Origin: a virus
Lineage: Duplodnaviria; Caudoviricetes
Strand: one strand, 5' to 3'
Length of the DNA: 57,709 bases
IMG/VR virus record: IMGVR_UViG_3300025392_000646
Span: 1-57,709 of that record
How positions within the stretch are numbered: the stretch's first letter is position 1; each line of letters begins with the position of its first letter. Below the pieces are notes generated by a model. It ran no database searches, had not been told where the DNA came from, and was given only the letters and a program-made list of their open reading frames with translations. The position numbers and the translations under genes are program-made. Positions 1,254 to 57,709 of the stretch are shown piece after piece.

Positions 1254-2072
1254 TTATCGTACCCAGTACCAAATAATACCAGGGTAACCCATACCCACAT
1301 CGTTTTGCCAAGGTGCAGGATTCCAACCATTATCTGATATTAATGTTCCCCACCATGCTCCACTATCATCATGCGTTGTAGTCATAATGGCCTGTGCTAT
1401 TTTAAAATCAGAACTAACAGAATACCAAGGCATTCTATGTTCTATACCTTGGTCGTTGTAATCCCAAGTTCCACTATCAGTTGGGAATTTTTGTATTTCA
1501 GTTATATTTTGTCTAAATCCACTTGAACCATTTATCACATCACTTCCAAAATACACAGAACCAGTTGATATATATTGTCCATAATCTACTGAACCGGTAA
1601 AACTATAATTTTCATTTGCTCTCCATATTCCACCATAATGTCCTCTAGTATTTGCATCCATCATATATTGGAAACCTGAAGGAGAACTCTTTATGTAATC
1701 TGCCCACCCAATAATACTATAATTTTGAGTATCATCTCCATTAGCTACAGTTGCTAATGTTGTTGGTGGTGTTGTTTGATGTTTAAGTAATGCTTCTGCT
1801 TCACTCCAAACGGTATAATTATTTTGTAATATTAATGTCCAACCACCACCTGCTGTTGTCATATCTGCGTAAATTTGGAATGGTGTACCTCCATTTATGT
1901 TATTATTTTTAATCCAATATAATCCATCTGTTGATGATGGAAAATCCGTTTTAATTTGATATGCAGAATCTCCAGCAGATTGTGGACTTAAACCATCTTT
2001 TGTAGGTGGTTTTGGTGTAAATCTTATTTGATTTGATAATGAGATACCTTTTATTTTAAATGTAATTGGCAT
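1254..2072 (-). CDS. Fibrinogen-like (YCDxxxxGGGW-type) domain protein, probable virion adhesin/decoration
   Basis: SAYQIKTDFPSSTDGLYWI...PFQIYADMTTAGGGWTLIL matches the fibrinogen/intelectin N-terminal motif; Trp-rich C-terminus; located in the structural cluster. Confidence 0.65.
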   Translation of the reverse strand: MPITFKIKGISLSNQIRFTPKPPTKDGLSPQSAGDSAYQIKTDFPSSTDGLYWIKNNNINGGTPFQIYADMTTAGGGWTLILQNNYTVWSEAEALLKHQTTPPTTLATVANGDDTQNYSIIGWADYIKSSPSGFQYMMDANTRGHYGGIWRANENYSFTGSVDYGQYISTGSVYFGSDVINGSSGFRQNITEIQKFPTDSGTWDYNDQGIEHRMPWYSVSSDFKIAQAIMTTTHDDSGAWWGTLISDNGWNPAPWQNDVGMGYPGIIWYWVR

Positions 2073-2081
2073 ATACCTTAA

Positions 2082-4586
2082 TTATAATAATCGTTCAACA
2101 GTAATTGAACCATAGCTACCTTCATTACCTTCATCCGCAGAATTGTAAGAACCATAAAAAGTAGCTCTATATATTCTATTGTTTGTTAAATCTTGTATTC
2201 TAACAATAGCACAATCACCAGGTCCTAGTGGAGAACATAATCCATAATATCCACCAGTATTAACAATACTTGTAGGTCCTTGACTACTATAATCAACACC
2301 AGCTGAATTTGTGCATCTTTCCACACCCCATATAGTAAGATAATCCGGATAACCATTTGAATTATTACCACTAGCTATCATACTTGGTGCTCCACTATTA
2401 TATGGGTCAAACATAAAATTGTAACTTTCATATGAACCCGTTTGAGGTACATTAGTTCCCCAAGGTGAAAGTGGTCCTGTTGAAGTTGTTGTACTTAATA
2501 ATGGTTTTAATTCCTCAGCTATATTATCATAACTATCATAAGTAACCACACTTCCAGAACGTGTCATTACATATGAACCCGTAGTTTGAACCATCGTACC
2601 ATAACTAACATCAATTTGGTCTGCGTAAAATGTTCCAGTTTGATTTATTGAACCAGTTATAGTTAAATCACCACTTTCTATAATTAAATCCGTATTAATA
2701 GTATCAATAGTCCCATTATTTACAATTGTAGAAGATACTATTAAAGATGAAGATATATTTACTGAACCGCTAATTACCATTGAACCATTAACATCAATAC
2801 CACCAGGTGTTGTTAATGTATCGTTTATTCCAAAATTCCAAATACCACCCTCACCAAATGATAATGATGATGGAGATGTACCAAATGAGTCATAATAAAC
2901 ATTATATGTTCCATCTCCATTTGAAGTTACACCAGGATATAATATTGTTGCGTAACTTGATAAATTAAAACTATCATATACTTTATTTCCAACACCAATC
3001 AATCTATCCAATGGTAAAGGACTAGAAATATAATAAACCGCAGGTAATCCCCCTCCCGCACTATTACCATCTATTATTGAATATGGTCCTATTTTATCAA
3101 CTACAATATTTCCTTCGGATGGTATTGTTAAAGAACCACTTTTATCAAATTTCCATCTTTTACCAGTAGAATAAGCATCAGGAATAATATCATTAGTTCC
3201 AATTACAATTTCTCCATTTGTATTAGTTCTTACATATTGACTATCATTTCCTAAAAATAAACTTGTTACTGATAAATCTCCACTTGTTAAATGTAAGTGA
3301 TTTCCTTCACTTACTGTTGGGTAAATTTTTAATTGTTGATTTGCATCACTCCCACCATGCGGAGTTAATGTTATAGTATTACCTAGTCCAGCAGGACTAC
3401 TATCTTCTTTAATCGTTCCCCCAACAGGTAATATTAAACTATTAGTACTTCCTTCAAATTTCCAATTAAATCCACCTGCCGATGGTACTCCATTTGTTAA
3501 ACCTTCATCAGAAGTAGATATATAAAGATTATTGTTACCATCATCAACAATCATACGAACATTAGTACCACCAACCATTGCTAATGCAGTATCAGGATTT
3601 ATCCAAATATTATGTCCACTTGGTACACTAATAGTATCATATGTTGTTCCATCTTCATCATTTGTTCCTAATGTAAATGAACCACTAATTGTTTGCGTTC
3701 CAACAAAAGTATTAGAACCAGTTGTTGCAAATGAACCAGTTGAATTAATTAATAATTGTAAAGATGAAGTTGTTGCGAATGAACCAGTATCAAATTTACT
3801 ACCAGTTAAATTATTTGCATATATATTTCCACTTACAAATATAGAACCACTTACATTAATATTTCCCTTTGTAATGTTTAATGAACCAGAAGTTACTGTT
3901 GAAGTATTGTTAAAACCAATAGTAACATCGCTAGGAAGGAAAGATTTTCCATCATAATTAAATATCCAATCATTTTGAGTTGCACCATCTTTTAAAATTC
4001 CTATTGCTGCAATTGGTCCATCGGAAAATGGATATCCAACGATTTCATTTCCAAAAAAAGATGAATTATTGGATGGAACTGATGGAGTATCAGTAACTCC
4101 AAAAATAGAATATGAGTCTGATGTAACCGATACACCTGCTCCATAAGAACCACTTGCTCTTACATCAAATGAATTAGGACTTGTATTTGCAAATTGTCCT
4201 ATTGTAAAAGCTGCCCCTGCTGTTCCAGATGTTCCACTTAAAGATAAACTACCACTAAAATTTATAGTATTTGCTGATATTTTTAAATCAGTTGAAGAAT
4301 ATAGATGAGGTATTCCGGCATCTACAATTGTAAATCCGGATGAAGTAACTCCACCTTGTATTGTTTGATTTCCAATAAATGTATTAGAACCAGTAGTTGC
4401 AAATGAACCGGTATTACTAAAACTTATGTTACTTATAGAAGCACTTAAGCTATTAATTTCTGCCACCAAAGAACCAGTATTGATTACAGGTGCTAATGGT
4501 GGTAAATGAGATAATGGTATTTTACTACCACTATCCAATGGAGCATATCCATTTGCTCTACCCCTATTTATTTTACTTTCAAACAT
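2082..4586 (-). CDS. Tail fibre-like structural protein (834 aa)
   Basis: N-terminal NGYAPLDSGSKIPLSHLP fibre motif, repeated TGSFATTGSNTF.G.QTI units, beta-rich G/S/T/N composition. Confidence 0.65.
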   Translation of the reverse strand: MFESKINRGRANGYAPLDSGSKIPLSHLPPLAPVINTGSLVAEINSLSASISNISFSNTGSFATTGSNTFIGNQTIQGGVTSSGFTIVDAGIPHLYSSTDLKISANTINFSGSLSLSGTSGTAGAAFTIGQFANTSPNSFDVRASGSYGAGVSVTSDSYSIFGVTDTPSVPSNNSSFFGNEIVGYPFSDGPIAAIGILKDGATQNDWIFNYDGKSFLPSDVTIGFNNTSTVTSGSLNITKGNINVSGSIFVSGNIYANNLTGSKFDTGSFATTSSLQLLINSTGSFATTGSNTFVGTQTISGSFTLGTNDEDGTTYDTISVPSGHNIWINPDTALAMVGGTNVRMIVDDGNNNLYISTSDEGLTNGVPSAGGFNWKFEGSTNSLILPVGGTIKEDSSPAGLGNTITLTPHGGSDANQQLKIYPTVSEGNHLHLTSGDLSVTSLFLGNDSQYVRTNTNGEIVIGTNDIIPDAYSTGKRWKFDKSGSLTIPSEGNIVVDKIGPYSIIDGNSAGGGLPAVYYISSPLPLDRLIGVGNKVYDSFNLSSYATILYPGVTSNGDGTYNVYYDSFGTSPSSLSFGEGGIWNFGINDTLTTPGGIDVNGSMVISGSVNISSSLIVSSTIVNNGTIDTINTDLIIESGDLTITGSINQTGTFYADQIDVSYGTMVQTTGSYVMTRSGSVVTYDSYDNIAEELKPLLSTTTSTGPLSPWGTNVPQTGSYESYNFMFDPYNSGAPSMIASGNNSNGYPDYLTIWGVERCTNSAGVDYSSQGPTSIVNTGGYYGLCSPLGPGDCAIVRIQDLTNNRIYRATFYGSYNSADEGNEGSYGSITVERLL

Positions 4587-4595
4587 ATTTGTTTA

Positions 4596-4904
4596 TTATG
4601 CTGCGTTTTGTCCGTTGTATCCTGCTAAAACTAATTCTTTAACTCTATCTACTACTTGTTCATTTGTCCAGTTTCCAATTGCATCATATGCAGCACCTTC
4701 CCATAAAATGAATAATCTATTTTTAGTAGTCATTGCTGCGATAGTTTTAGTCATTGGATTATCAATTATTTTTCTAATCTCAATATTTTTTGCTTTAATT
4801 TCTGCACCACCAACTGTCTTAACTGCAATAGAAGACTCAAAATTTACCAATAAACCCTGTGGTTCTGGTGTTTGTGATTTTGGTTTGTAATTTGTATTTG
4901 CCAT
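4596..4904 (-). CDS. Small hypothetical protein, possibly fibre-associated
   Basis: ATG-started ORF packed between fibre genes; contains LWEGAAYDAIGNWTNEQV. Function not recognisable. Confidence 0.5.
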   Translation of the reverse strand: MANTNYKPKSQTPEPQGLLVNFESSIAVKTVGGAEIKAKNIEIRKIIDNPMTKTIAAMTTKNRLFILWEGAAYDAIGNWTNEQVVDRVKELVLAGYNGQNAA

Positions 4905-4923
4905 TTTTATTTATTTGTTTTTA

Positions 4924-7449
4924 TTAATCGTTATATAATTCTGCATCCGAATACCATTTACCACTTGTCCAAACTGCTTTTGTCATATTTTTCCAAATGT
5001 AAGTATTTCCACCATCAGTTACATTTAATCTTGCAAATGGTTTAATTGCTCCACTGTGGTCTCCTAAATTATATGCATATCCTGTCATTACTATATTAGA
5101 TGACCATAATTCAAATTGTTCAGGAGTTATTGTATGAGAACCATCACTTTTTAATATAAATGTAAGTTCTTGTCCTTCATATTCTCCATCAGGTAAATGA
5201 TAAGTTTGGAAAGTACTAATACCACTAATATCAAATGTGATAATATCTCTACTACCAAAATTAATATTTGGTCTACCACCAGTTGTTCCATTAGAACCAG
5301 ATGGGTCTTGTAATTGTGTATTTTGAAAATTACTAAATCCTCTACTAACAGTTGCATATTGTAAAGATGAAGTTATTGTTGTATTACCTATACCACTACT
5401 TTGTCCAATTTCAATATTACTAAATTCAACAGATGAACCAGATATAGTTAAATCTAAAAATCCAGAATCTTCACCAATTGAAGCATCATTTATTCCACAA
5501 TAATTATAGATATTGATATTTCCTACATATGTATCTCCGTTAATATGAATATCATTAAAATAAGAATAATTTCCTAAAGTTACATAAGTAACCTCTGAAT
5601 CAGATTTAACTGAAAAATTCTGCATATTAGAATTAGCACCTATTGTTATATTATTTATTCCAGAACCAGCATCTATTTGATGATATCTAAAATATGAACT
5701 ACTTGCTAAAGTTATAGTGTTTAATCCCGAACTATTACCAACCGATATTTCAGCTATTTGTGAATTATTTCCTATTCCAGTAGCAGTTATTACGGAATTG
5801 TTTTCCATAGATATTTTAGAAAATGTACCATATGAATCAATTCCCATACAAATAATATTGGAATCATGTTTCATATCAATATATTCAATATATACACCAT
5901 CGTTTGTACCAATATATTCTATCACAGAATTTCCACCCATTGTAATATATTGAATATTATTATTGATACCAAATTCCATATCTCCAAAATATGAATTATT
6001 TCCAACTCTAATATCACATGCTTGCGAATTATCATATAAATCAATATGTTCAAAATCTGCACCACTTTCTAAATAAATTTTGAATATTCCACTAAAATTA
6101 TATAAACTCAAATACCCAAAATATGCATTGGAATCTAATGTAATATCATACATATATGAATCAAAATAGAAAAATAAATTACGGAATGTTGAATTTTGTC
6201 CAATTGTTATATTTTTTAATAAATTCCCACCATCATCCATATCATATCCGTATATATTATACAAATATGCACCACTTTCAATTTTTATGTTACTAATAGT
6301 ACTACTAAAACCCAAATATAAATTATATATTCCACAATCTTTTCCTATTGTTATATCATACATAGAAGTTCCCCTGCCCCAATAACGTACATCAAATTCA
6401 CCACCATCCGAATCAACTGATATTCCCATAAGTTGATTATGATTGTATCCATTATAGTTAGGGAAGTTTACTAAATTGTAAATGTATCCATTATTAATTG
6501 TTACTTCGGTTACATTTTGATGTCCCCAAGGAAAATATCTAATTGCGTTAAATCCCCAATAACCATTTGTTACAGCCCATTCTGCTGATACTTCATTACC
6601 ATATGCATCTGCTCTATATGAGATATTATCAAATTCATATTCATATTTAATTTTATCTGCAACTAAAACATAATCATCCGTATTGAAAGGAACAATTTGC
6701 CAATTTGTATTATCCAAATATAATGCATCATCACCACCAAATTGAGTACCAACTTGTCCAGTTAAATTTCTATGAACTAATCCACCATATATTACTTTAT
6801 CACCAATATTGTAAGATGATGTGTAATATGCGTAATCAATACTTGCGCTTGTTGGGTTAGTATCACTTGTTGCGATAAATGGATAGTTGGCAGGATTTTC
6901 AAAGAATTTAGTGTGAGAATCTTCAGGCATCGATAAAGTCATACTTGCTCCACCAACATTTCCTACTAAATGACAATAAGAAGATGTTCCGTTTGCATTT
7001 AAATAAATGTAATCATCATGTGCAAAATATCCATTAGAAGTTGTGAAATTAAATCTATTTGTACCATCCCAAACTTTAAGACCTAAACTTGATGTTGAGT
7101 TTGAATACTTCGGGTTCCAAAATAAACCCACACCATCGTTTGATAATGAAGATGTTGTTACGGCTTGTAAAATTACTCTAGTTCCGCCATATTGAACTTC
7201 ATTAAAACTTCCAGATGATGCGTTGGTAATCATATAAAAAGTACCAATACTTAAAGCACCGGCATTAATCATATCATCCATTTCCATTTTGGTAACTTCG
7301 TTAATTCCGCTACCACCACCATAGTAGTTTCCGTTTGAGTCTTTTACTTTGATTGTATTATCCGATGCGTCTATAAACAAATTATACCCACCTGCTATTG
7401 GTAAATCTAATTCTGCGGCCACTTGCCCTTGTAATTGAATGTATTGCAT
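4924..7449 (-). CDS. Beta-solenoid/beta-helix tailspike-like structural protein (841 aa)
   Basis: The central ~350 aa have ~11-residue periodicity (ITIGQNSTFRN / ITLDSNAYFGY / IRVGNNSYFGD / ITMGGNSVIEY / ISVGNSSGLNT); C-terminal LPDGEYEGQELTFI motif typical of fibre tips. Confidence 0.6.
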   Translation of the reverse strand: MQYIQLQGQVAAELDLPIAGGYNLFIDASDNTIKVKDSNGNYYGGGSGINEVTKMEMDDMINAGALSIGTFYMITNASSGSFNEVQYGGTRVILQAVTTSSLSNDGVGLFWNPKYSNSTSSLGLKVWDGTNRFNFTTSNGYFAHDDYIYLNANGTSSYCHLVGNVGGASMTLSMPEDSHTKFFENPANYPFIATSDTNPTSASIDYAYYTSSYNIGDKVIYGGLVHRNLTGQVGTQFGGDDALYLDNTNWQIVPFNTDDYVLVADKIKYEYEFDNISYRADAYGNEVSAEWAVTNGYWGFNAIRYFPWGHQNVTEVTINNGYIYNLVNFPNYNGYNHNQLMGISVDSDGGEFDVRYWGRGTSMYDITIGKDCGIYNLYLGFSSTISNIKIESGAYLYNIYGYDMDDGGNLLKNITIGQNSTFRNLFFYFDSYMYDITLDSNAYFGYLSLYNFSGIFKIYLESGADFEHIDLYDNSQACDIRVGNNSYFGDMEFGINNNIQYITMGGNSVIEYIGTNDGVYIEYIDMKHDSNIICMGIDSYGTFSKISMENNSVITATGIGNNSQIAEISVGNSSGLNTITLASSSYFRYHQIDAGSGINNITIGANSNMQNFSVKSDSEVTYVTLGNYSYFNDIHINGDTYVGNINIYNYCGINDASIGEDSGFLDLTISGSSVEFSNIEIGQSSGIGNTTITSSLQYATVSRGFSNFQNTQLQDPSGSNGTTGGRPNINFGSRDIITFDISGISTFQTYHLPDGEYEGQELTFILKSDGSHTITPEQFELWSSNIVMTGYAYNLGDHSGAIKPFARLNVTDGGNTYIWKNMTKAVWTSGKWYSDAELYND

Positions 7450-7453
7450 ATTT

Positions 7454-8215
7454 TTATATTATTGTTCCTGTTCCTGTTATTGATGAATTACCTATTAATA
7501 TAACTTCTCCACCCACACTTATCTTACCATTATTTTCAATAACACTATCTTTAAGTAATAGATTTCCACCTATAAATATTGAACCTTCTTTTTTGAAGTA
7601 TTTGTTTGGAGAGTATTCTATTTCCTCATCACTACCTTCAATTAATAAAAATCCGTTTTCTAAAATATAATCACCTGAAAAAGTTAATTGTTCAGTTTTT
7701 CTTATTAAATATGAGTCGTATGTGTTATTCCAATTTGTATTTGCTGATAAATTTGTTAGTTGTCTACCATCTCCTAAATATGCCGATGCCGTTACAGCTG
7801 CCGTATATTTTACAGTGTTTTGTCCACCCGCATTATTCTCAATTGAGAATGATGTAGTAGCTTGTGTTTGAGCATCTACGAAAATAATTGAACCATGTGA
7901 TATATAAAGGTCTTTCCAAGCATTTGTTGCAGAACCTAAACTAAATGAAGATGTATAAGTTCCATCACCCGTTGTTGGTATGATTGAACCACTTATATAT
8001 TGAGAACCACTAAATTGATTTGAACCAGTTGTTGCGAATGTTTTATCTACACCATTAATAGATGCCGAAAATATATTATATTCCGCTCTAGTTATAAAAT
8101 TTTGAGAAGTTATATTTTTGATTTTCCAATACGTCCCTGTCCACTCGTAAGTGTTAGAACTTCCACTTTGATAAATGTGTCCTATTTCTGGGTTTAAAGG
8201 GAATACTAATGCCAT
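7454..8215 (-). CDS. Fibre/decoration structural protein (253 aa)
   Basis: N-terminal FPLNPEIGHIYQ....TYEWTGTYW motif, FATTGSNQF.GSQYISGS unit, and SLGSATNAWKDLYI fibre motif. Confidence 0.6.
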   Translation of the reverse strand: MALVFPLNPEIGHIYQSGSSNTYEWTGTYWKIKNITSQNFITRAEYNIFSASINGVDKTFATTGSNQFSGSQYISGSIIPTTGDGTYTSSFSLGSATNAWKDLYISHGSIIFVDAQTQATTSFSIENNAGGQNTVKYTAAVTASAYLGDGRQLTNLSANTNWNNTYDSYLIRKTEQLTFSGDYILENGFLLIEGSDEEIEYSPNKYFKKEGSIFIGGNLLLKDSVIENNGKISVGGEVILIGNSSITGTGTII

Positions 8216-8264
8216 TTTGTTTGTTTCTTTTTAGAAATATTGAAAAACCTTAATTGTACCATTA

Positions 8265-9824
8265 TTATCTATAAATATTTAAATTTACGTTAAGGTTGAG
8301 ATTACCAGTAACTTTTAGTGTAATTGGATTATTAAATCTATTATATACTACTTTTTGAGTACCACCTAATAAAGAATTAAAATTTGTCCAATCGTTATTT
8401 TGTCCAGTTGTATAAATTGCGTTACCACAATCATTCAAAACTATATTTTTAATTTGAGATGGTGTATAATGTGGATAATATTCAGAATAAAGTGCAGCTA
8501 TACCAGTTATTTGTGGAGTTGCCATTGAAGTTCCACTTATATTAACTTGCTTAAAATTTGAATTTGCATAATACGATGGTGCTGAAAATTCATTTATAGT
8601 TGATGTACAACTTAATATATTTGTACCAGATGAATATAAATCTACACCAGGCCCACTACAACTATAATAAGCTTTTTTATCCGTATTTGTATCATATACA
8701 CTACTATCCAATGAACCTACCATAAATGCATGAGGTGAATATGGCGATGAACCTTGATGATAATAATACCAACCATTTTCAGTTTGTATTTGGTTATTAT
8801 AATCCGGACCTGCCGATGTATCTATTTTAAAAGTACTATTTCCCGCTGCTATACAAACAATAACACCAGCATCAATTAATTCTTCCACATCAACATCAAC
8901 CGAACCTACTCTTATTGGAAATGAATATGAAGTTCCATCAAAATTATTTATAATACCATAATTAGTTTGTCTATAATTTGCATTTCCAGTTGTATTACTA
9001 TCTGAATGTTCTACACCTCTATAATTTACTTTTGATATTGTTGTATAATTTGCACTATATCCCCAGCTCATATTAACTATTGTTGGTCTACTACCGCCTT
9101 TACTAATATGCCAAAGTTTAATAGCATCAAAACAATATGTTATATCAATACCAGTTCCACCATCACCGCTTCCTTCCAATCCACTAACTTTTAAAGAATA
9201 TACATTTGCTTTTTTTGCCCAACCATATGTTTTACCAGCAGTTATACCAGCACAATGTGTACCATGTCCACTATAATCTCTATAATGATTTGGTGATTGT
9301 GTAAATGGTAATCCACTTGCAGCTGCCCAATCTATTAATTGAACTCTACTTACTCCATTTTCATCTATAAATTCAGGATGATTAACTTGCAATCCACTAT
9401 CCTGAATTACAACATCAACTCCTCTACCTGCTAAATTGTATGTATGATTTTCATTTGTAGTTGTACCAGTACCATAAGAATTTGTTAATGAATTTGCTCT
9501 TATTAATCCCCAATTTGCTACTGCCCCAACTGATGATGTAGTTTTATTAAAATCAAATATTTCCGTTGCTTTTCTTCCTATTTGTATATCCGTTCTATGT
9601 TCAGGTGGTATTTCTACACAATAAACTCTATCATCATTTTTTAATATTTCAGCTTCCGCATCAGTAAGTAAATACCAACATTGTCTTTCTGATGCAATTC
9701 TTTCATTTGTATAATTAACAGCTCTTTCAGGAATATGAGCATGATTAGGAAGTACATTTTCCATTTGATTCCAAAATGTATCATAATCAACTCCTTTTTT
9801 AAGTGCTACATTATATTCTCTCAT
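8265..9824 (-). CDS. Subtilisin-like S8 serine peptidase, probably virion-associated
   Basis: Complete triad motifs VVIQDSG (Asp), HGTHCAG (His) and SGTSMATP (Ser); oxyanion AAGN; NMSWG; N-terminal propeptide-like region ending LTDAEAEILKNDDRVYCVE. Confidence 0.92.
   Translation of the reverse strand: MREYNVALKKGVDYDTFWNQMENVLPNHAHIPERAVNYTNERIASERQCWYLLTDAEAEILKNDDRVYCVEIPPEHRTDIQIGRKATEIFDFNKTTSSVGAVANWGLIRANSLTNSYGTGTTTNENHTYNLAGRGVDVVIQDSGLQVNHPEFIDENGVSRVQLIDWAAASGLPFTQSPNHYRDYSGHGTHCAGITAGKTYGWAKKANVYSLKVSGLEGSGDGGTGIDITYCFDAIKLWHISKGGSRPTIVNMSWGYSANYTTISKVNYRGVEHSDSNTTGNANYRQTNYGIINNFDGTSYSFPIRVGSVDVDVEELIDAGVIVCIAAGNSTFKIDTSAGPDYNNQIQTENGWYYYHQGSSPYSPHAFMVGSLDSSVYDTNTDKKAYYSCSGPGVDLYSSGTNILSCTSTINEFSAPSYYANSNFKQVNISGTSMATPQITGIAALYSEYYPHYTPSQIKNIVLNDCGNAIYTTGQNNDWTNFNSLLGGTQKVVYNRFNNPITLKVTGNLNLNVNLNIYR
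8270..8278 (-). promoter_or_regulatory. Putative late promoter motif inside the 3' end of the S8 gene
   Basis: Exact motif 55 nt upstream of ATG 8215. Confidence 0.45.
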
Positions 9825-9834
9825 TATTATATTT

Positions 9835-12528
9835 TTATCCGATGTATGCTACTGAAAAGTTATCGTTTCCATCAAATGTTACTGTTCCAGTTGTAACTAT
9901 TGCATATAAAGTATCTCCAACTGCCATTTTAGTAACAGAACTACCTCCAATGTGATTTACAGTTGTGTTTGCTGCCCACTCTAACATTATTTGTGTTGTA
10001 ATTGTACCACCACTATTTTTTCTTACAATAAGTTGTGCTGCTGGATTTGAATTACCGGAACATCTTGCTACAACATTAACTTGATATAATCCTGCTATTG
10101 GTGCTGTAAATGTACCAGTTGCTTGATTCCAACCACTACCTTGCGAATAGTCTGCATTCATACTACTACTAGCTATAATTGTTGGAGATGATATTGAATT
10201 ACCGGCTCCACTTACTCTAAATGCTGGTCTATTTTGCATTGTCAACGAACCACTAATAGTTAAATCACCATTATTAGTTAAAGTAAATAATGTACTACTA
10301 TATAAACTATTAATAATTTCTACACCACCTAAATTATTTAATCTAAATGTTTTATTACCATTTGTTGTTCCAGTATAGTTGTTTGATACTTTTAAGAAAT
10401 TCAAATAACCATTACCACCATTCATATCCGAACCACTTACCCAAATTGCAGGTAAAACAGATGCGGTAGGTTGATTGATAAATAATGCCCCACTTATGTA
10501 TGTAGAACCAGTTATTGTAGTTGTACCAATAGTAGTTAAAGAACCACTTATTATTGCAGAACCCGTATATGCTGTTAAAACTGCCGATGTACCAGATGTT
10601 CCTGATGTGCCGCTACTTCCCGAACTTCCTGATGTGCCACTACTTCCACTTGTTCCATTTACTCCCGATGTTCCATTTACTCCCGATGTTCCGTTTACTC
10701 CCGATGTTCCGTTTACTCCCGATGTACCCGATGTTCCAGAATTACCCGATGTACCAGACCCAGCCAATTCTATCATTTGCAATGTTGGACCATTTGCTTC
10801 TCCAAATTGGAATGTACCAGACATTGTTCCAGTTCTTAAAGTATATATGTGACTTCCAGCTGATGGTGTATCAATTACATTTACACAATATGGTATATTT
10901 AAATTTGCCCCACTTTGTTCTGCTTGGATTATGTTACCAATAGCTGAACCATCTCTATAAATTTGTAATCTAACCCAACCAGCACCTGATGTTGGATTTG
11001 CATCTCCAGTTGCAATTATTGATACAGGTTTTCCCGTTGTTGTTATTGAACCACTAACAAGAATTGTATTACTACTATTAACACCATTTACTTGAGCACC
11101 TAATACTTGAACATAATTTTGCGTTCCTGATGGTGTTATACCACTTGTTCCCGATGTGCCAGTCGAACCAGTTGTTCCCGAACTTCCTGTCGAACCACTA
11201 CTTCCAGATGTACCCGAACTTCCTGATGTGCCACTACTTCCGTTTACTCCCGATGTACCATTTTGTCCATTAACTCCAGAAGTTCCAGCACTACCATTTG
11301 TACCACTAACTCCAGATGTGCCTGCAGTTCCACCACTTCCTGATGTACCACTACTTCCTGATGTGCCGGCCGAACCAGATGAACCTATTGAACCATCTTT
11401 ACCAGAAGTTCCTGATGTACCACTTGCCCCAGTTATTCCACTACTTCCTGATGAGCCATCACTACCACTTGTACCGCTACTTCCAGATGAACCGGCCACT
11501 CCAGTTGCATTATTTAATGAAACAGTCCATTGAGAATATGTACCACTACCAGTTACAGTTACAGGCGGACCTATTGTTAATAAACCAGTTATTTTATCAT
11601 AAGATGCTACTGAACATATTTGATGATTGTATATATCATATGCTATTATTATATCTTGTCCAATTGAGTATGATAAATCCGTTCCAATATATAATGATGT
11701 AGATACTCCTAATTGAAATGAAGTTGTTGATGTTGTTGTATATAAATCTCCAGTAAGTCCAGAAGTTCCACTACTGCCAGATGTGCCACTACTACCACTA
11801 GTCCCAGAAGTTGCGGATGTGCCACTACTTCCAGATGTTCCAGAAGTACCTTCGCTTCCTGTTGTACCACTACTCCCGCTTAAACCCGATGTTCCACTAC
11901 TTCCTGATGTGCCGCTTGTTCCAGATGTTGCGGATGTACCCGATGTACCACTGCTTCCATCAGCTCCTACTAAATCATTTACAGGTATCCAATTTGTTCC
12001 GTTTGTATCTTCGTATTGAATATATAAAGTTCCTTCATTATCGTTAAACCAAAACTTCCCGTTTGTTCCAGTTGTTGGTGCCGTTTCTGCAATATAAACT
12101 GCTGCGTATTGTGCCGAAGTTCCATCAGTACCATTTGTTCCAGAAGAACCCGATGTACCAGCAGAACCAGTTGAACCATCAGTTCCCGATGTACCAGAAG
12201 TTGCTGATGTGCCCGATGTACCACTTGTTGCAGAAGTTCCAGAAGTTCCTGATGAACCACTGCTACCCGATGTTCCGCTTGTTCCAGAAGTTCCCGATGT
12301 ACCATGAGCTCCTCTAAATCCACTACTACCACTACTACCACTTTTACCGGAAGTTCCTGATGACCCCGATGAACCATATCCACTTGTGCCACTACTTCCA
12401 GATGAGCCAGCAGTTCCCGATGTACCATTTGGGTCACCTTGAATACCTTGAGCACCTTGAATACCCCCAGATGATATTTTCAAATGTGTGTTTGGATGAA
12501 TTATTGTAATATTATGTTCGCAGCTCAT
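9835..12528 (-). CDS. Gly-X-X (Ser/Thr) repeat fibre protein with C-terminal C1q/TNF-like domain (897 aa)
   Basis: Long GTS/GSS triplet tracts; C-terminal RPAFRV...WNQATGTFTAPIAGLYQV...MAVGDTLY...FSVAYIG is a C1q-like head. Confidence 0.8.
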   Translation of the reverse strand: MSCEHNITIIHPNTHLKISSGGIQGAQGIQGDPNGTSGTAGSSGSSGTSGYGSSGSSGTSGKSGSSGSSGFRGAHGTSGTSGTSGTSGSSGSSGTSGTSATSGTSGTSATSGTSGTDGSTGSAGTSGSSGTNGTDGTSAQYAAVYIAETAPTTGTNGKFWFNDNEGTLYIQYEDTNGTNWIPVNDLVGADGSSGTSGTSATSGTSGTSGSSGTSGLSGSSGTTGSEGTSGTSGSSGTSATSGTSGSSGTSGSSGTSGLTGDLYTTTSTTSFQLGVSTSLYIGTDLSYSIGQDIIIAYDIYNHQICSVASYDKITGLLTIGPPVTVTGSGTYSQWTVSLNNATGVAGSSGSSGTSGSDGSSGSSGITGASGTSGTSGKDGSIGSSGSAGTSGSSGTSGSGGTAGTSGVSGTNGSAGTSGVNGQNGTSGVNGSSGTSGSSGTSGSSGSTGSSGTTGSTGTSGTSGITPSGTQNYVQVLGAQVNGVNSSNTILVSGSITTTGKPVSIIATGDANPTSGAGWVRLQIYRDGSAIGNIIQAEQSGANLNIPYCVNVIDTPSAGSHIYTLRTGTMSGTFQFGEANGPTLQMIELAGSGTSGNSGTSGTSGVNGTSGVNGTSGVNGTSGVNGTSGSSGTSGSSGSSGTSGTSGTSAVLTAYTGSAIISGSLTTIGTTTITGSTYISGALFINQPTASVLPAIWVSGSDMNGGNGYLNFLKVSNNYTGTTNGNKTFRLNNLGGVEIINSLYSSTLFTLTNNGDLTISGSLTMQNRPAFRVSGAGNSISSPTIIASSSMNADYSQGSGWNQATGTFTAPIAGLYQVNVVARCSGNSNPAAQLIVRKNSGGTITTQIMLEWAANTTVNHIGGSSVTKMAVGDTLYAIVTTGTVTFDGNDNFSVAYIG
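10585..12430 (-). repeat. Coding 9-nt-period Gly-X-X repeat tracts (897-aa fibre)
   Basis: Tracts at about 10585-10770, 11130-11500, 11755-11965 and 12115-12430; includes a 4x 18-bp tandem unit TGTTCCRTTTACTCCCGA at 10651-10722. Confidence 0.9.
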
Positions 12529-12546
12529 TCTTTATTTTATATTTTA

Positions 12547-17876: not shown

Positions 17877-18311
17877 TTAGATTACTTGAGCCCAACCACC
17901 ATTTGTATTAGTTCCATTATAGAAATACAAATGAGAACCACTTTGAATTAATGAACCAGTCACTGCTGTTCCAGCTGCTGCTAAACCACTTGCAGCTGCA
18001 TATCCAAATATAGGACCAGATGTACCAAACTTAACATATCCTTGTGTTGCATCTTGTTGTCCTCTAATACCAACTGTGTTTGATACGTTTACATCTCCCA
18101 TTGTTGCATCATCTCCAATTTTGAAACTATTACCATTTCCATTTTGAGTTGCGTAGAATGAAGATGCAGTTACTTGATTGAATACTGCATTTAAAGTACC
18201 ATTTGTTAATGATGAATCGTTAGTTATTCTACTATCAATATACGATTGTAATGTAGTTCCAGCTGGAAGTGTTACCGTATTTGATGTTTGTGTTATGAAA
18301 TTATCTGCCAT
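17877..18311 (-). CDS. Virion structural protein, paralog of 18351-19049
   Basis: C-terminus GYVKFGTSGPIFG...AVTGSLIQSGSHLYFYNG....GW aligns by eye with the neighbour. Confidence 0.55.
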   Translation of the reverse strand: MADNFITQTSNTVTLPAGTTLQSYIDSRITNDSSLTNGTLNAVFNQVTASSFYATQNGNGNSFKIGDDATMGDVNVSNTVGIRGQQDATQGYVKFGTSGPIFGYAAASGLAAAGTAVTGSLIQSGSHLYFYNGTNTNGGWAQVI

Positions 18312-18350
18312 TTTATTTTAATTTTATTTTTTCTATTTTTAATTTATAAC

Positions 18351-51463: not shown

Positions 51464-52396
51464 TTATGTGTCAAAACGAACAATAAAGTTTACAGGGTAA
51501 TCCGGTAATGACTTTACAGCCTTTGGTAATTTTGCTACTGCAACCATATTTAAATCATCATCATATAATCCAATTGTAGTAATATATGGTGCTAAATAAG
51601 AACCAGTAGGGTCTACAGAACCACTTTCAAAATAATCATCAAAACTCCCAACAACAGTCGGGTCTATTGATGAAGTAAATGGATATCCAGCGTTTCTTAT
51701 ATATCTAATCCCAGCTATATTAATAGTTTGTTCGTATGTTTGGGTTAGAGTTGGGTCATATGGGTTTGTAAGTGTTGCTACAAAAGTACTATTTCCATCT
51801 TCATAATATGATGAAGGATTTGTAGATGTATTAAATTCATTTTCTAATACTGATATAAAAATCTCATTCTCATATATAGTTTTTGTAGAACGAAAATATA
51901 AAGAATAATTTAAAAAAGAAGTACCATTTGTAATATCTTTAGTCATTACAATTAATCCTCTATCATAAAATACATTACCATATATTTCATTATTATAAAA
52001 TAAATTAGAATAACCATCATCCACATAATCATTAGTGCCATCATTTAAAATCACAGAACCTACTTTTATACCTTCTCCATAATTAATTTGAGGAATTGAA
52101 ATAACTGCTATATCATTTCCTATTACTCTCTCATCAGTTGAAGCGTATGATTTTCTATTTCCAACTTCCGTAAATAAAGAAGCAGTTGCCGAATTTAAAT
52201 AAAATTGAGCTGCAATAGAATCATATACAAGTCTTTGATACAATCCATTTGATTTTGGGTCAGATGACGGGTCAAATAAACTATCTGTAATATTAGTACC
52301 ATAAACAGTAGGTACATCATTTTCATCCAAAGTCCATTCTTTATAAACTTTGAAAGGTCTAATGATTATATCAGATTTTGAAATTTCCTTTAACAT
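51464..52396 (-). CDS. Probable baseplate/tail structural protein, paralog of 52465-53685
   Basis: GNVFYDRGLIVM, ENEFNTSTNPS and YITTIGLYDDDLNMVAVAKL are shared with the neighbour. Confidence 0.6.
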   Translation of the reverse strand: MLKEISKSDIIIRPFKVYKEWTLDENDVPTVYGTNITDSLFDPSSDPKSNGLYQRLVYDSIAAQFYLNSATASLFTEVGNRKSYASTDERVIGNDIAVISIPQINYGEGIKVGSVILNDGTNDYVDDGYSNLFYNNEIYGNVFYDRGLIVMTKDITNGTSFLNYSLYFRSTKTIYENEIFISVLENEFNTSTNPSSYYEDGNSTFVATLTNPYDPTLTQTYEQTINIAGIRYIRNAGYPFTSSIDPTVVGSFDDYFESGSVDPTGSYLAPYITTIGLYDDDLNMVAVAKLPKAVKSLPDYPVNFIVRFDT

Positions 52397-52441: not shown

Positions 52442-52464
52442 TTCTCACTTTATCTTAATTCATA

Positions 52465-53685
52465 TTAGAATGATAATTTAACTTTGATTAGGATTTCCTT
52501 ATCAAATGATTTAGCGATTGGTTGTGAAGTTTTAGCTACTGCAATCATTTCGTTTGCATCGTTCAATAAACCAACAGTTGTTACATATGTGTAAGGGTCA
52601 GTATTGAAAGTAGATACTTCAAATGCTCCGTTTGAACCACTTACAAATGTAGGGTTGTTAGAGTAGTTAAATTCTCTATTTGTTGCTCTTACAAAGAAAT
52701 GTTGAGTTGATACATTTTCAGTTCTTCTTGCTTCAAATTCACCACTAGCACTTATTGCGTAGAATAATCTTTTGTGATTATATTGTTCAGCTGCAGTTGA
52801 TGCAGAACCACTTAAGTTACCAATTAAAGTTCCTTGTGAATCTCTAACACTACCAACAGTTGCTCCAATTGCTTTTGGATTCAATACAATAATACCTTTA
52901 TCAGGATAGAATGTACCAAAACCTAAACCAGTTGTAGTATCGGTTGTTGCTGCAATAGTTGCATCGTTTTGAGTTCCTAAATTTAATGCTCCACTTACTA
53001 CATTGAATACTCTACCTGGCTTACCAGCAGTATCAGAAAACTTCTTACCACTATCATCAATGAAAGTGAATACTCCGTTTGACCCACTTAAATATAATTG
53101 CCAGTTACCAGAATCCATTGATTCTCTATATCTTGCTCTTTGAACATTAATTACATAGATATCATCAGATGTAGTTGTTGAACCAGCTGAGTTATTAAAA
53201 TAAAATTTATCAACACCACTATCCAATAATAAACTTCTATATTGGAAATAAGTACCTTTAGTTGCTGTTAATGAGTTCTCATCTACAGTCAATGATACTG
53301 AACCACTTCCATCATAATGTCCATAAGCTACTGCAAAGTTAATTTCAGCTGCTGAGTTTAATTGTGGATTTTGTTCATATACATTTAAGAAATATTCTGC
53401 ATTAGTAGATGCTGCTTGAGTTGATGATGTATAGAATGTAGTTAAAGAACCACTATCTAAACTCCATAATCCTGTTGTTACAACTTCAGTCTTTGCATTT
53501 ACAACATCATAAGTTCCGAACATTTTGTATATTCCAGTAGTTACTCCGCCAGTTGAATTTGAAATTTGTTGACCAGCTGGTAGTACACTATTAAGAATAG
53601 ATACGATTTGATTTGTGTCAACCTGTCCAGAATTAGCTAATGCTGAAATCTGAGAGGTTATATTTGGGTCATTAATTAGTGCCAT
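52465..53685 (-). CDS. Probable baseplate/tail structural protein, paralog of 51464-52396
   Basis: GTFYPDKGIIVL, NREFNYSNNPT, YVTTVGLLNDANEMIAVAKTSQPIAK. Confidence 0.6.
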   Translation of the reverse strand: MALINDPNITSQISALANSGQVDTNQIVSILNSVLPAGQQISNSTGGVTTGIYKMFGTYDVVNAKTEVVTTGLWSLDSGSLTTFYTSSTQAASTNAEYFLNVYEQNPQLNSAAEINFAVAYGHYDGSGSVSLTVDENSLTATKGTYFQYRSLLLDSGVDKFYFNNSAGSTTTSDDIYVINVQRARYRESMDSGNWQLYLSGSNGVFTFIDDSGKKFSDTAGKPGRVFNVVSGALNLGTQNDATIAATTDTTTGLGFGTFYPDKGIIVLNPKAIGATVGSVRDSQGTLIGNLSGSASTAAEQYNHKRLFYAISASGEFEARRTENVSTQHFFVRATNREFNYSNNPTFVSGSNGAFEVSTFNTDPYTYVTTVGLLNDANEMIAVAKTSQPIAKSFDKEILIKVKLSF

Positions 53686-53701
53686 TTTATATATCTATTT
53701 A

Positions 53702-54325: not shown

Positions 54326-54347
54326 TTTATAATTGTTTTCTATTTTC

Positions 54348-54356
54348 TATAAATAT
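54348..54356 (-). promoter_or_regulatory. Putative late promoter motif
   Basis: Exact motif upstream of ATG 54325. Confidence 0.6.
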
Positions 54357-54380
54357 AACTAATTTTTATTTTTCATCAGA

Positions 54381-57300
54381 TTAATTCACTTCCAATATAG
54401 GTTCTCCCGAGCCACGTCCTGTCTTAGCCACTCTAAGAATGTTAGGATTTGTTGTGAATGTTTGAATTGGGTCTAATCCATCTGGTGTTGTTGTAGCATC
54501 TTGCGTAGAACCTTTATGGAAAGAACGCTGTAATCCTTCACTTAAAGTGTTTTTAAATTTGTAGTGTGTAGGATAATATCCATCCAAAGGAGTTACAGAT
54601 ATTGTAGTACCACCAACGCTTGGTTGATATGGAACTCCATATGATGCAGTTACAAATGGAATTATGTTTACTTCATATTTGTATTTAGTAACAGGTATAT
54701 CTTCATAAACTACTTGGTCACCAGGTTGTGCACCTATTGTTGGGTATCCAGCTATTTGAGTTGATATATTTTGTGTATATGATTTTTCAACCAAATCAAC
54801 AATAACTCTTGATGAACTTATATTACCATGTAAATCTATTGTTTTTTGAATACCAACACCATTTTTTGCATATAATCCAAATCCAGCTATATCTAATGAA
54901 TTTGCATCCATGCCAACAACAGTCATTGCAAATGCATCCACTTCTGCTGTTATAGAAGAACCAGATGGAATTTGTATTGATGTTTCATATGTTGGATATG
55001 AACCTTCTAATGAACCACTAAATCCATAATCAATCTGCCCATCATACATTGGAGTTGTACCAACTAATGTATAAGTTTCATCTGCATTTATATCACCCTC
55101 AATGTTATTGTATTCAAAATCAAATGTAGCTACTTTGGTTGCATCTAATAAAGTATCTTCACCAACTACATCACTTTCAATTACATAGTTTTCATTTGCC
55201 ACAACCTCACCTTCAATATTATTATATTCAGTTGTTGGTTTGTCCCAAAGAGTTTTATTTCTTTCTAAAAAGTGAGGTTCTATTAATAATCCTTTAGAAA
55301 CCTTTGCTCTAGCAGGTGCAATATCATGCAATACATCAAATAAAGATTTATCAATGTATTTAATTAATTGAATATATTCATTTATGTTTCTATCCAATCT
55401 TTCAAAATAATATTCTCTTAATTTTTGTAGTTCGGAATAATTTTCTTTGTATTCATCACCAGGGTCACCAATATAATTATCAATATTAAAATCACCAAAT
55501 GCTTTTAAAATATCCATATTCAACTCCTTAGTTGGAGAAAGAAATAATCCTAAACGAGATGAATCAATAGGAGCTCTATCAAATGATTTTTTAGTTGCTC
55601 TAACTTTATAAGATAAATCGCTTACCAATTCAATATCTTCAAAACGAATTTTATTTGAAAATCCAAATCCAACAGAAGGAACATTTGCTGTTACAGTTCT
55701 ATCGTATGGTTCATATTGGAAAGGATATGATGAAGCTGAATAGAAATTTTGTGCATATCCATAATCTTCACCATACTGCTGATTAATTGAAACATTTTTA
55801 ATATTATTATCATCCGTTCTATCTTTAGGATATTCAAAATCCAATCTATATAATAAATCTGCAGTTGATGCTGTATATGAATTACCATTTATTGCATCAG
55901 GGAATAAACTATGATTTTGAAATTTAGATATTTCTAACGGAACTCTCCATAAACGAAACTCATCTATATTTCCCACAAACCCATTTCCACCAACAGTTAG
56001 GAATGAACCACTTTCCCATATATCAGTAGTGGCCATAATTGACATACTAGCATATGTTAAAATTCTATGTCCATCAGTTGTTGAATAATTTATTTCATAC
56101 CAAGAAGAATTTCCACCCAAATCATGTCTATTAACTAATACACTTGAATAGTAATCCAACGATACAGGAAATTCCAAACTTCCAGTTACTACATCAGCAT
56201 CGGAAACATAGTATATAGTTTGGTCCATATAATATGTTTGAATAGAAGCGCTGGTAAATGGTTCTAAAAAGTATGAATATGCTGAGCCTGTCCCCATTCC
56301 CAAATCAATATCCAATCTAGCAAAAGAACCAGTTGTTTGAATTAAATTAATTCCAAAGTTACTTCCCGATATTAAAGAATATGTACCATAAGATGATGGT
56401 TTTATTCTAAATTCTATTGATTCAGGATAATTTGAAGTAGGTGATACAATGTGCCAAGGAATAGATAAAGATGATGATTGCTCCATTACTAATGCAGCAG
56501 TTCTATCATCAAATGTAAATTGAGTTACACCATCAGCGCTTGGGTCTTGAGGTCCACCAAATTCCATTATTGTCAACATAGATTGAGGAACACCATAACA
56601 AGCCATAATAGCTTTCATAGCTCTAGCAGTTCCTTTATGTTTTAATATATAAGGTAAATTATTTAATATTCTTCGCCAAACTTCATTATTTGCATCTTTT
56701 AATGGCATTGAATATTTTTGTGTACCATCCTTATAAGTACCAAATGCATATTCCCATAAAAAATGAGAATCAAATGCTTTTCTAGTATTCCAACCAAATG
56801 ATTCTAACATATTTTGAACCATATCGTTTGCAATACCAATAATTTGTTTTTGTTCTAATATTTTATTACTATTACTAGCATTTATATAAGCCCATACAAT
56901 ATCAAAATGTTGACCTATCATGTCTAAGAATAAAATAAAATCTGAATTTTCAGTATCATTTTTTATAAACTCAGGTATGTTATTTGATAGTGAGTTTGTA
57001 TTGTATTTATCATAATATTCCGAATCATTTAGTAATCCAGCAAACCAATCAATCACATATGAATCCGTACTAGGTATTAAAGAGCCATCTATATTTTTAG
57101 GATATGCCAAATCATTTTTTGATTCATATAAAAATGTTTCATATCCATCAAATGTTCTTACTATTTGATTTTTTAATTCTAAATTTTTATTTGCTTCATT
57201 TACTGAAGAAATTGAGTTTATCCAAGTTGAACCAGAAGCTAATGATTGATATTTTGATTCATATAATTCTATTAATTGTATTTTGTAAAAGAAATTATTT

Positions 57301-57709
57301 GCTCGTTCTGCTGCTGAACCAAAGTTTACAAAATTTGAGAACATATAATTAGACCCGCTTACATATTGTATATTAAGTTTAGTAGTATCTATATTATTTG
57401 CTTCAATATATTTGTTAAATAAATCATTTGATGTTGCAGAACCACTTGCTAACAAATCATCATAAACTTTAAATCCAATTCCATTATCAGTCATTAATGA
57501 AAAATTAGGTCCTTTTAATGGAGGACAAAATTGCTCACTTACACCAACTAAATTTAAAGTATCAATTATTGGACTTGATTGTAATTTAGAAATCCAAACT
57601 TGCTGATTTAGTTGTATTGTAGTATCTAATGGTTCGTATAATTTTAATATCAAACTATTATTACTACCAGTCCAAGTTGTAATTACTTTATTATTACCAC
57701 CTCCCAAAT
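54381..57709 (-). CDS. Large baseplate wedge-like protein (5' end outside the window)
   Basis: Frame is open to the right edge; LPYILKHKGTARAMKAIMACYG resembles the KGT motif of wedge proteins; LamG-like FVGNIDEFRLW; PARAKVSKGLLIEPHFLER. Confidence 0.6.
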   Translation of the reverse strand, partial: LGGGNNKVITTWTGSNNSLILKLYEPLDTTIQLNQQVWISKLQSSPIIDTLNLVGVSEQFCPPLKGPNFSLMTDNGIGFKVYDDLLASGSATSNDLFNKYIEANNIDTTKLNIQYVSGSNYMFSNFVNFGSAAERANNFFYKIQLIELYESKYQSLASGSTWINSISSVNEANKNLELKNQIVRTFDGYETFLYESKNDLAYPKNIDGSLIPSTDSYVIDWFAGLLNDSEYYDKYNTNSLSNNIPEFIKNDTENSDFILFLDMIGQHFDIVWAYINASNSNKILEQKQIIGIANDMVQNMLESFGWNTRKAFDSHFLWEYAFGTYKDGTQKYSMPLKDANNEVWRRILNNLPYILKHKGTARAMKAIMACYGVPQSMLTIMEFGGPQDPSADGVTQFTFDDRTAALVMEQSSSLSIPWHIVSPTSNYPESIEFRIKPSSYGTYSLISGSNFGINLIQTTGSFARLDIDLGMGTGSAYSYFLEPFTSASIQTYYMDQTIYYVSDADVVTGSLEFPVSLDYYSSVLVNRHDLGGNSSWYEINYSTTDGHRILTYASMSIMATTDIWESGSFLTVGGNGFVGNIDEFRLWRVPLEISKFQNHSLFPDAINGNSYTASTADLLYRLDFEYPKDRTDDNNIKNVSINQQYGEDYGYAQNFYSASSYPFQYEPYDRTVTANVPSVGFGFSNKIRFEDIELVSDLSYKVRATKKSFDRAPIDSSRLGLFLSPTKELNMDILKAFGDFNIDNYIGDPGDEYKENYSELQKLREYYFERLDRNINEYIQLIKYIDKSLFDVLHDIAPARAKVSKGLLIEPHFLERNKTLWDKPTTEYNNIEGEVVANENYVIESDVVGEDTLLDATKVATFDFEYNNIEGDINADETYTLVGTTPMYDGQIDYGFSGSLEGSYPTYETSIQIPSGSSITAEVDAFAMTVVGMDANSLDIAGFGLYAKNGVGIQKTIDLHGNISSSRVIVDLVEKSYTQNISTQIAGYPTIGAQPGDQVVYEDIPVTKYKYEVNIIPFVTASYGVPYQPSVGGTTISVTPLDGYYPTHYKFKNTLSEGLQRSFHKGSTQDATTTPDGLDPIQTFTTNPNILRVAKTGRGSGEPILEVN

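Follow-up and report, generated by a model that had tools for sequence, protein, structure and literature searches.

A residue-order-dependent [ST]-G-S tripeptide in the tail proteins of a phage lineage follows ancestry, independently of a phage-encoded TibC-like glycosyltransferase

Introduction

The viral contig analysed here in its entirety (IMG/VR record IMGVR_UViG_3300025392_000646, 57,709 nucleotides or 57.7 kb, called the window in what follows) encodes tail, baseplate and fibre proteins in which one tripeptide, serine or threonine followed by glycine and then serine ([ST]-G-S), is far more frequent than composition predicts. The excess depends on the order of the residues, recurs at conserved positions, is restricted to the phage lineage to which the window belongs, and is independent of the presence of the putative protein O-glycosyltransferase of the BAHT family (the family of TibC and AAH) that the window also encodes. 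That lineage is taken to consist of the freshwater jumbo-phage clade of the window together with the phages Mel-JY01, immuto and RM378. The original prediction, made from the sequence of the window, was that [ST]-[GA]-S is an acceptor motif which selection has placed across the virion exterior for the phage's own glycosyltransferases. The reading favoured here, to which we would give a probability of roughly 55%, is that [ST]-G-S is an inherited, lineage-typical structural signature of tail, baseplate and fibre proteins and not a glycosyltransferase acceptor tag.

The tripeptide excess and its controls

For each protein the number of [ST][GA]S tripeptides was compared with the numbers found in 2000 composition-preserving shuffles. 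The proteins of 834, 253, 522, 2310, 406, 1108 and 310 residues all show an excess with p ≤ 0.015 (counts in Table 1), which bears out the initial observation that the tripeptide is dense in fibre and baseplate proteins. The list of carriers that accompanied it is mostly right, but it overstated the case for a fibre protein of 272 residues (2 against 0.7 expected, p = 0.17) and an adaptor of 126 residues (1 against 0.4, p = 0.33), and it overlooked the enriched proteins of 232 and 144 residues; an 841-residue protein likewise shows no significant excess (4 against 2.3). The collagen-like protein of 897 residues contains 36 copies against a shuffled mean of 16.4, but in the collagen-like proteins S[GA][ST] (75-104) and [GA][ST]S (82-105) outnumber [ST][GA]S (31-36), the tripeptide being present there because it is a by-product of S/T-rich G-X-Y repeats, and collagen-like runs were masked or left out in all comparisons.

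When all tripeptides were scanned over 7,565 residues, those of 13 proteins of the tail, fibres and baseplate, SGS ranked first (47 against 8.8 expected, z 13), and third place by z went to TGS (34 against 8.5, z 9), the second-ranked QHF having only three occurrences; SAS is weaker (15 against 5.1). For the 834-, 2310- and 1108-residue proteins, arranging the residues in four other orders yields 1-9 matches, against 15-34 for the motif itself, while [ST][GA]T gives 1-10, so that the excess survives the composition check set beforehand, namely comparison of SGS with GSS and SSG. Shuffling only locally, within windows of 10-50 residues, leaves the result intact, 81 [ST]GS being seen where 1000 shuffles gave a mean of 17-19 and never more than 34 (z ~15). 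There are 100 distinct flanking contexts for 107 sites, and duplication therefore accounts for about seven of them. Serine is strongly favoured at the third position (81 [ST]GS against 16 [ST]GT); viewed the other way, S or T occupies x in 59% of x-G-S, and S occupies x in 42% of [ST]-G-x. Hydrophobic residues are found at 57% of +1 positions and at 47-48% of positions -1 and -3, against a background of 33% in the window, and the extended motif in its usual form is hydrophobic-[ST]-G-S-hydrophobic. The [ST]GS excess in the tail proteins is thus confirmed as real and dependent on residue order.

One might nonetheless suspect an artefact of S/T/G-rich low-complexity stretches, of internal repeats or of a motif acting at the level of the DNA, given that the carriers are indeed S/T/G-rich, that collagen-like proteins yield the tripeptide trivially, and that codon use within the motif is strongly skewed, following the pattern AGT/ACT-GGT-TCW with AGT or ACT at the first position and GGT for 86% of the glycines (52% overall). 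Such an origin is hardly credible. Composition and low complexity are ruled out by the shuffles, by permuted orders that run at about their expected frequency and by the tripeptide scan, and internal repeats by the number of distinct contexts; the tail proteins of T4 and HSE3, moreover, show no such excess (Table 2). The codon skew arises because GGA-TCN would create GATC, a tetramer absent from the whole window (0 against 167 expected), and because T-ending codons are preferred before glycine: S or T before any Gly has a T-ending codon in 79% of non-motif cases, and 70% of the Gly codons before any Ser are GGT. The commonest nucleotide form of the motif has 57 copies, every one of them in frame on the coding strand and none off-frame or on the opposite strand, which together with the context-explained skew rules out a DNA-level motif and places the signal at the protein level.

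Outside the tail proteins the picture is less marked. The gp23-like major capsid protein has sites at residues 136, 178, 191 and 248, exactly the four named originally, but the excess there is marginal (4 against 1.2 expected, p = 0.03). The motif had also been described as confined to surface proteins. The zero counts given in support are correct for SbcCD, primase, terminase, portal, the 1204-residue protein, both glycosyltransferases and the S8 protease; two sites had been overlooked, in a GIY-YIG protein of 159 residues (SAS at 83) and in a 239-residue protein (TGS at 217), and the depletion implied by the claim does not hold, as the 29 non-tail, non-collagen proteins together contain 7 sites against 8.7 expected, their low counts reflecting a poverty in S, T and G. 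The Bacteroidota sequon D-(S/T)-(A/I/L/V/M/T), from which the motif had been said to differ, shows no enrichment in the tail proteins of the window (23 against 31.9 expected).

Comparison across phage genomes

By gp23 the nearest named phages to the window are LR756508 (55%), an uncultured phage of 484 kb, Mel-JY01 (53%), immuto (50%) and RM378 (42%), the hosts of the nearest cultured relatives being Microcystis (Mel-JY01), Flavobacterium (immuto) and Rhodothermus (RM378); in addition IMG/VR holds a complete 274-kb relative, here called G001. Open reading frames were called in 11 genomes (the window and ten others), and composition-corrected ratios of observed to expected [ST]GS were calculated alongside a control consisting of the pooled ratio for the four permuted orders. 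Absence of BAHT was established by searching each record in full in all six frames. The results are collected in Table 2.

Table 2 Enrichment of [ST]GS and of its permuted orders (observed/expected) in 11 phage genomes.
Genome	Relation to window	BAHT	[ST]GS	Permuted orders
Window	lineage	present	4.43	1.29
G001	lineage	present	4.24	1.17
Mel-JY01	lineage	present	2.83	1.33
immuto	lineage	absent	2.46	0.94
RM378	lineage	absent	2.70	1.00
LR756508	lineage	absent	1.40	1.19
LR756501 (megaphage)	unrelated	present	1.52	1.56
LR756504 (megaphage)	unrelated	present	1.23	1.15
T4	unrelated	absent	0.70	1.27
HSE3	unrelated	absent	0.67	1.07
Colly1	unrelated	absent	1.47	1.12

Enrichment tracks lineage and is independent of whether BAHT is present. 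Three of the six lineage genomes lack BAHT, and two of those three are enriched 2.5-2.7x, much the same as the BAHT-bearing Mel-JY01 (2.8x), though below the window (4.4x) and G001 (4.2x); neither of the two unrelated genomes that carry BAHT is enriched above its own permuted control. Nor can the excess be a general trait of phage tail proteins, a possibility ruled out by T4 and HSE3. The flanks behave similarly, a hydrophobic residue following the motif in 54-58% of cases in the window, G001, immuto and RM378 as against 29-42% in the other genomes.

Individual sites are shared as well. In the family of the 406-residue protein, 'G-SGS' follows an AYGH strand in the same alignment column in the window, G001, Mel-JY01, immuto and LR756508, while a second site, 'v-SGS-l', is found in Mel-JY01, immuto, LR756508 and RM378 but no longer in the window or G001, which have lost it; 'fvSAS' in the gp23 of the window aligns with 'fvTGS' in that of RM378. 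With immuto and RM378 enriched without BAHT and using the same columns, the idea of a motif put in place by selection to serve as acceptor for the glycosyltransferases of the phage is not supported. The original prediction had itself named equal enrichment in relatives lacking the glycosyltransferases as evidence against it, and this is in substance what is found, with the qualification that the relatives in question lack BAHT yet carry a GT1-family enzyme.

Within the clade of the window the number of sites per protein is also maintained, at 8-20 in each of 14 orthologues of the 1108-residue protein, 18-32 in each of 21 orthologues of the 2310-residue protein and 3-7 in each of 13 orthologues of the 406-residue protein. 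Certain sites never vary, whereas others come and go: TGS at residue 264 of the 310-residue protein is present in 13/13 orthologues, and SGS at residue 127 of the 406-residue protein in 13/13 clade orthologues and also in BAHT-lacking immuto and LR756508. Across the clade, 61% of orthologue cells retain the serine at position 3 of the motif, whereas other serines are retained in 36%. This higher retention is what a structural and an acceptor role would both predict, and the spectrum of substitutions at motif positions does not discriminate between them either. The 406-residue family, which corresponds to no Pfam or PHROG family, has 3,653 metagenome homologues at E ≤ 1e-5; its C-terminal part shares with the 310-residue protein a conserved block (…ITT[VI]GLY[DN]…AVAK…P…K…).

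The glycosyltransferases

Judged by homology, the 385-residue open reading frame is a true TibC/BAHT-family protein O-glycosyltransferase homologue. A phmmer search against the PDB matches it to TibC (4rap_A) with E 2.9e-55, residues 64-377 of the query aligning with TibC 61-379, a span that takes in the GT-B catalytic domain, the beta-hairpin that forms the thumb, and the iron-finger region; Pfam, in comparison, gives only a weak match to Glyco_transf_9 (E 8e-6). According to the TibC report (PMC4358343), which assigns roles to individual residues, Asp-110 is the catalytic base. By residue count along the alignment it is kept in the phage protein (TibC 'TLGDLLGWFPY', query 'ALGDSLAWFPY'), as are the sugar-binding Thr-226, Lys-230 and Trp-305 and all four iron-finger cysteines, Cys-339, 342, 358 and 370 (in C-x-x-C, WCP and FEC). 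Arg-286 is replaced by Val and the stereoselectivity residue Pro-300 by Gly, so that the donor sugar of the phage enzyme is uncertain and may differ from that of TibC.

Enzymes of this family work in the cytoplasm on serines of beta-rich fibrous proteins (PMC4358343, PMC3835316). TibC is described as heptosylating Ser, not Thr, on the beta-helix of TibA, with mapped sites at Ser-313 (N-S-G-G) and Ser-322 (T-S-A-A) (PMC4358343), and what is recognised is described as a strand-loop-strand element with the acceptor where the loop begins and without a sequence consensus (PMC3835316). The supposition that this phage encodes a glycosyltransferase of its own able to act on protein is to that extent supported, since its homologue would belong to a cytoplasmic, Ser-directed family, and the homology gives the acceptor idea a real mechanistic footing.

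No autotransporter gene was found in the window. The neighbours of the BAHT gene are a GT1-family gene that directly precedes it, small open reading frames, the gene for the 2310-residue fibre protein (three genes away, those for proteins of 94 and 148 residues and the GT1) and packaging genes. The 548-residue GT1 protein has no match in the PDB. BAHT is present in 77 IMG/VR loci, at 71-81% identity in 76 of them and at 39% in the remaining one, and among 50,697 GenBank phage records in four, those of Mel-JY01, LR756501/503 and LR756504. Among contigs of the clade long enough to judge, none lacks it (a further member, G002, has it, while the fragment G004 is too short), and a literature search turned up no publication describing a BAHT encoded by a phage. 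The BAHT domain of Mel-JY01 forms the C-terminus of a 1226-residue protein annotated 'methyltransferase FkbM' (4750-8430), which looks, from its domain matches, like a multi-enzyme fusion undersold by that annotation; its gene is followed, as in the window, by a gene for a cytidylyltransferase-like protein, then terminase and portal. The N-terminal part of the fusion weakly matches the GT1 enzymes of RM378 and LR756508.

The cytidylyltransferase-like domain at the N-terminus of the 1204-residue protein might be thought to supply a sugar nucleotide, but it is nearest, and then weakly, to nicotinamide mononucleotide (NMN) adenylyltransferases (E 2.5e-4), and such a role is unsupported. A heptose-nucleotide pathway was not found, nor was any evidence seen that the phage makes sugar nucleotides.

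In Mel-JY01, LR756501 and G001 the neighbourhood of the BAHT gene encodes proteins rich in S, T and G or in poly-Thr. The one in G001 (253594-255042, minus strand), absent from the window, is a 482-residue protein with 29% Thr and 77 TTT tripeptides, encoded two genes from the GT1-BAHT pair, and by its composition looks like a mucin-like candidate substrate. Such neighbours, and likewise the collagen-like fibres, are other candidates for the substrate of BAHT.

Interpretation of the motif

In the reading favoured here the motif would most likely mark a junction of small residues beside beta-strands, for instance a tight turn or a strand cap, and would have been inherited along with the tail and fibre proteins, not installed for glycosyltransferases. 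A structural role of this kind is suggested by the sequence context and by the deep positional conservation, and structure models are not part of the case. The BAHT enzyme may still use some of the motif serines opportunistically, exploiting a motif that already existed, given that the known members of the family read shape and not sequence.

It must be said that a number of observations weigh against this reading. AlphaFold2 models were made of the 406-residue protein (from 33 sequences) and of residues 560-1250 of the 2310-residue protein (from 16 sequences), with mean predicted local distance difference test scores of 60.3 and 58.0 respectively. Clear hairpin turns are modelled at residues 200-202 of the former and 725-727 of the latter, but over all confidently modelled sites a strand/loop transition occurs at 8 of 16, compared with 365 of 639 (57%) other tripeptides (p 0.62); a looser 'strand boundary' class had too high a background (61-72%), and under the tighter transition class just given there is no difference. 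The two strongest enrichments, in the window and G001, both fall in genomes with BAHT, and gp23 has 4, 5 and 4 sites in the lineage phages with BAHT against 3, 1 and 1 in those without, so it is possible that selection by glycosyltransferases amplified the motif further in the clade of the window and G001. No lineage member free of glycosyltransferases was found, every lineage genome examined having a GT-B enzyme, and as all members without BAHT have another glycosyltransferase, any comparison of the motif with glycosyltransferases in general is confounded with lineage. Finally, the 11 genomes amount effectively to two or three independent lineages.

Some of these points would sit comfortably with a true sequon, in which BAHT O-glycosylates the serine of [ST]-G-S in capsid, baseplate, tail and fibre proteins, within the cytoplasm before assembly, and selection has multiplied the motif to give a sugar-coated virion. 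The homology of the enzyme is strong and extends to its catalytic and iron-finger residues; the third position of the motif is almost obligatorily serine and its flanks are strand-like, while the known enzymes modify Ser and not Thr within strand-loop-strand elements (PMC4358343, PMC3835316). The BAHT gene lies among late and structural genes, near that of the giant fibre protein, and is well conserved, and in Mel-JY01 it is the gene directly upstream of the BAHT fusion whose product has the largest excess of [ST]GS (13 against 2.5 expected). We nevertheless regard a true sequon as unlikely, because immuto and RM378 match Mel-JY01 in enrichment and share its site positions without having the enzyme, and because the unrelated megaphages that do have it show no specific enrichment. 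Moreover the mapped TibA sites, S-G-G and S-A-A, have serine followed by small residues and do not take the form x-G-S (PMC4358343), the changes at Arg-286 and Pro-300 leave the donor uncertain, and the pathway for a heptose nucleotide was not found, the best candidate domain being closer to NMN adenylyltransferases. A variant, in which the clade amplified an inherited turn into a dense array of BAHT acceptors over fibres, baseplate and capsid, would explain why the ratio is 4.2-4.4x there and 2.5-2.8x in Mel-JY01, immuto and RM378; we consider it doubtful to the same degree. If true, it would mark the first case of virion glycosylation by the BAHT family, and no earlier such system would have had a short acceptor motif that could be recognised.

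The motif could alternatively serve some other enzyme present throughout the lineage, such as a shared GT1, a protease or a chaperone. Mutual homology is found among the GT1 enzymes of immuto, RM378 and LR756508 (E 1e-31 to 3e-67), with a weak match between them and the Mel-JY01 fusion at its residues 76-407 (E 7e-5), the adjoining GT1 and BAHT genes of the window mirror that fusion, and T4, HSE3 and Colly1 have no match to PF00534 or PF00535, in contrast to the GT-B enzyme found in each lineage genome. In immuto the GT1 gene belongs to a sugar-modification cluster at ~49.1-59.9 kb with two GT2 enzymes, a DegT aminotransferase, a PglD-like acetyltransferase, an epimerase/dehydratase and a methyltransferase. 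Against this, LR756508 possesses a GT1 and yet shows almost no specific enrichment; orthology of the GT1 of the window to the others could not be demonstrated (BLASTP E 0.24; hhalign probability 5.6%, with only the generic GT-B motif in common); the presence of glycosyltransferases is fully confounded with lineage; and phage glycosyltransferases often act on DNA or on host surface sugars. This possibility appears to us less probable still than a BAHT sequon, and an inherited structural signature remains the preferred account of the motif.

Gene content of the window

All genes of at least 100 residues lie on the minus strand (Table 1). Families were assigned with Pfam and PHROGs, and these also place a primase and a GIY-YIG endonuclease in the window, while the genes for gp23, prohead protease, portal and large terminase make up its T4-type head and packaging module; many large open reading frames have no family, and it is their position and composition that identify them as tail, baseplate and fibre proteins.

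Table 1 Features of the window, with [ST][GA]S counts where enrichment was found and the basis of assignment where one is given.
Feature	Position	Strand	[ST][GA]S observed vs expected	Basis or remark
834-residue fibre-like protein	2082-4586	-	20 vs 5.0	densest carrier
253-residue fibre-like protein	7454-8215	-	6 vs 1.1	
S8 protease (subtilase)	8265-9824	-		Pfam/PHROGs
Collagen-like fibre, 897 residues	9835-12528	-		Pfam Collagen, E 1e-41
Collagen-like fibre, 1082 residues	12547-15795	-		Pfam Collagen, E 1e-46; starts with Mtd_N (major tropism determinant) domain
522-residue tail-spike-like protein	15813-17381	-	7 vs 1.5	weak phrog_1171 match
144- and 232-residue proteins	17877-19049	-	3 vs 0.7 (p 0.03); 4 vs 0.9 (p 0.008)	no assigned function
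gp23-like major capsid protein	20487-22118	-		Pfam/PHROGs; T4-type head module
Prohead protease	24884-25486	-		Pfam/PHROGs; T4-type head/packaging module
Portal	27339-29168	-		Pfam/PHROGs
Large terminase	29245-30849	-		Pfam/PHROGs
1204-residue protein	31586-35200	-		weakly NMN adenylyltransferase-like nucleotidyltransferase N-terminus, DUF5661, long family-less region
TibC/BAHT-family glycosyltransferase, 385 residues	35681-36838	-		phmmer vs PDB
GT1-family (GT-B) glycosyltransferase, 548 residues	36829-38475	-		10-nt overlap with start of BAHT gene
2310-residue giant fibre-like protein	39292-46224	-	34 vs 9.9	
Fused SbcCD, 1048 residues	46474-49620	-		Pfam/PHROGs; SbcD (Metallophos) and SbcC (AAA_23/SMC_N) in a single open reading frame
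310-residue baseplate-region protein	51464-52396	-	3 vs 0.55	
406-residue baseplate-region protein	52465-53685	-	7 vs 1.6	
1108-residue baseplate-region protein	54381-57707	-	15 vs 2.1	

Two arrangements recur in G001, Mel-JY01 and LR756508, namely the fusion of SbcD to SbcC and the position of the 1204-residue protein next to the terminase. The S8 subtilase gene adjoins the two collagen-like fibre genes on their downstream side (8265-15795, minus strand). Besides the missing GATC, the tetramers CGCG (1 against 38 expected), ACGT (18 against 167) and TCGA (25 against 167) are heavily depleted in the window, which taken together suggests strong avoidance of restriction sites.

Relation to known systems and significance

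Among the closest known systems is that of the BAHT enzymes TibC and AAH with their acceptors TibA and AIDA-I. The 385-residue enzyme has the catalytic Asp and the iron-finger cysteines in common with these, and the phage motif, like their acceptors, contains serine and has strand-like flanks. On the other hand the window gene is carried by a phage, with fibre and packaging genes as neighbours and no autotransporter nearby, its product has Val and Gly in place of Arg-286 and Pro-300, and the TibA sites as given in PMC4358343 read S-G-G and S-A-A where the phage has [ST]-G-S. The phage motif is, besides, equally present in relatives without the enzyme. The collagen-like fibres of phages offer another comparison, since the 897- and 1082-residue proteins of the window are likewise rich in [ST]-G-S; in these the tripeptide follows the G-X-Y period, whereas the non-collagen carriers are enriched in one order only.

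In mycobacteriophages, glycosyltransferase genes lie beside structural genes, and decoration of virion proteins with sugars has been proposed or shown; one genome-announcement abstract reportedly proposes glycosylation of the capsid. That system involves other hosts, other glycosyltransferase families and, as acceptors, other regions, namely those by which capsid and tail-tube proteins are extended at the C-terminus, and we know of no [ST]GS motif involved in it. The general O-glycosylation pathway of Bacteroidota, which operates outside the cytoplasm, uses the sequon D-(S/T)-(A/I/L/V/M/T), which resembles the phage motif in being three residues long with Ser or Thr followed by a hydrophobic residue, but differs from it in showing no enrichment in the tail proteins of the window.

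Should [ST]-G-S be structural, the motif would serve as a cautionary case, passing every control for composition and adjoining a plausible enzyme and yet failing the comparative test. It is unusual in its own right for a phage clade to conserve a TibC-type protein O-glycosyltransferase, and with a homologue in the cultured Microcystis phage Mel-JY01, glycosylation of phage virions becomes directly testable. If the role of [ST]-G-S is structural, the motif would provide a cheap, lineage-specific marker for the tail and fibre proteins of a phage group that is very abundant yet uncultured, and would point to a recurring element of their backbone.

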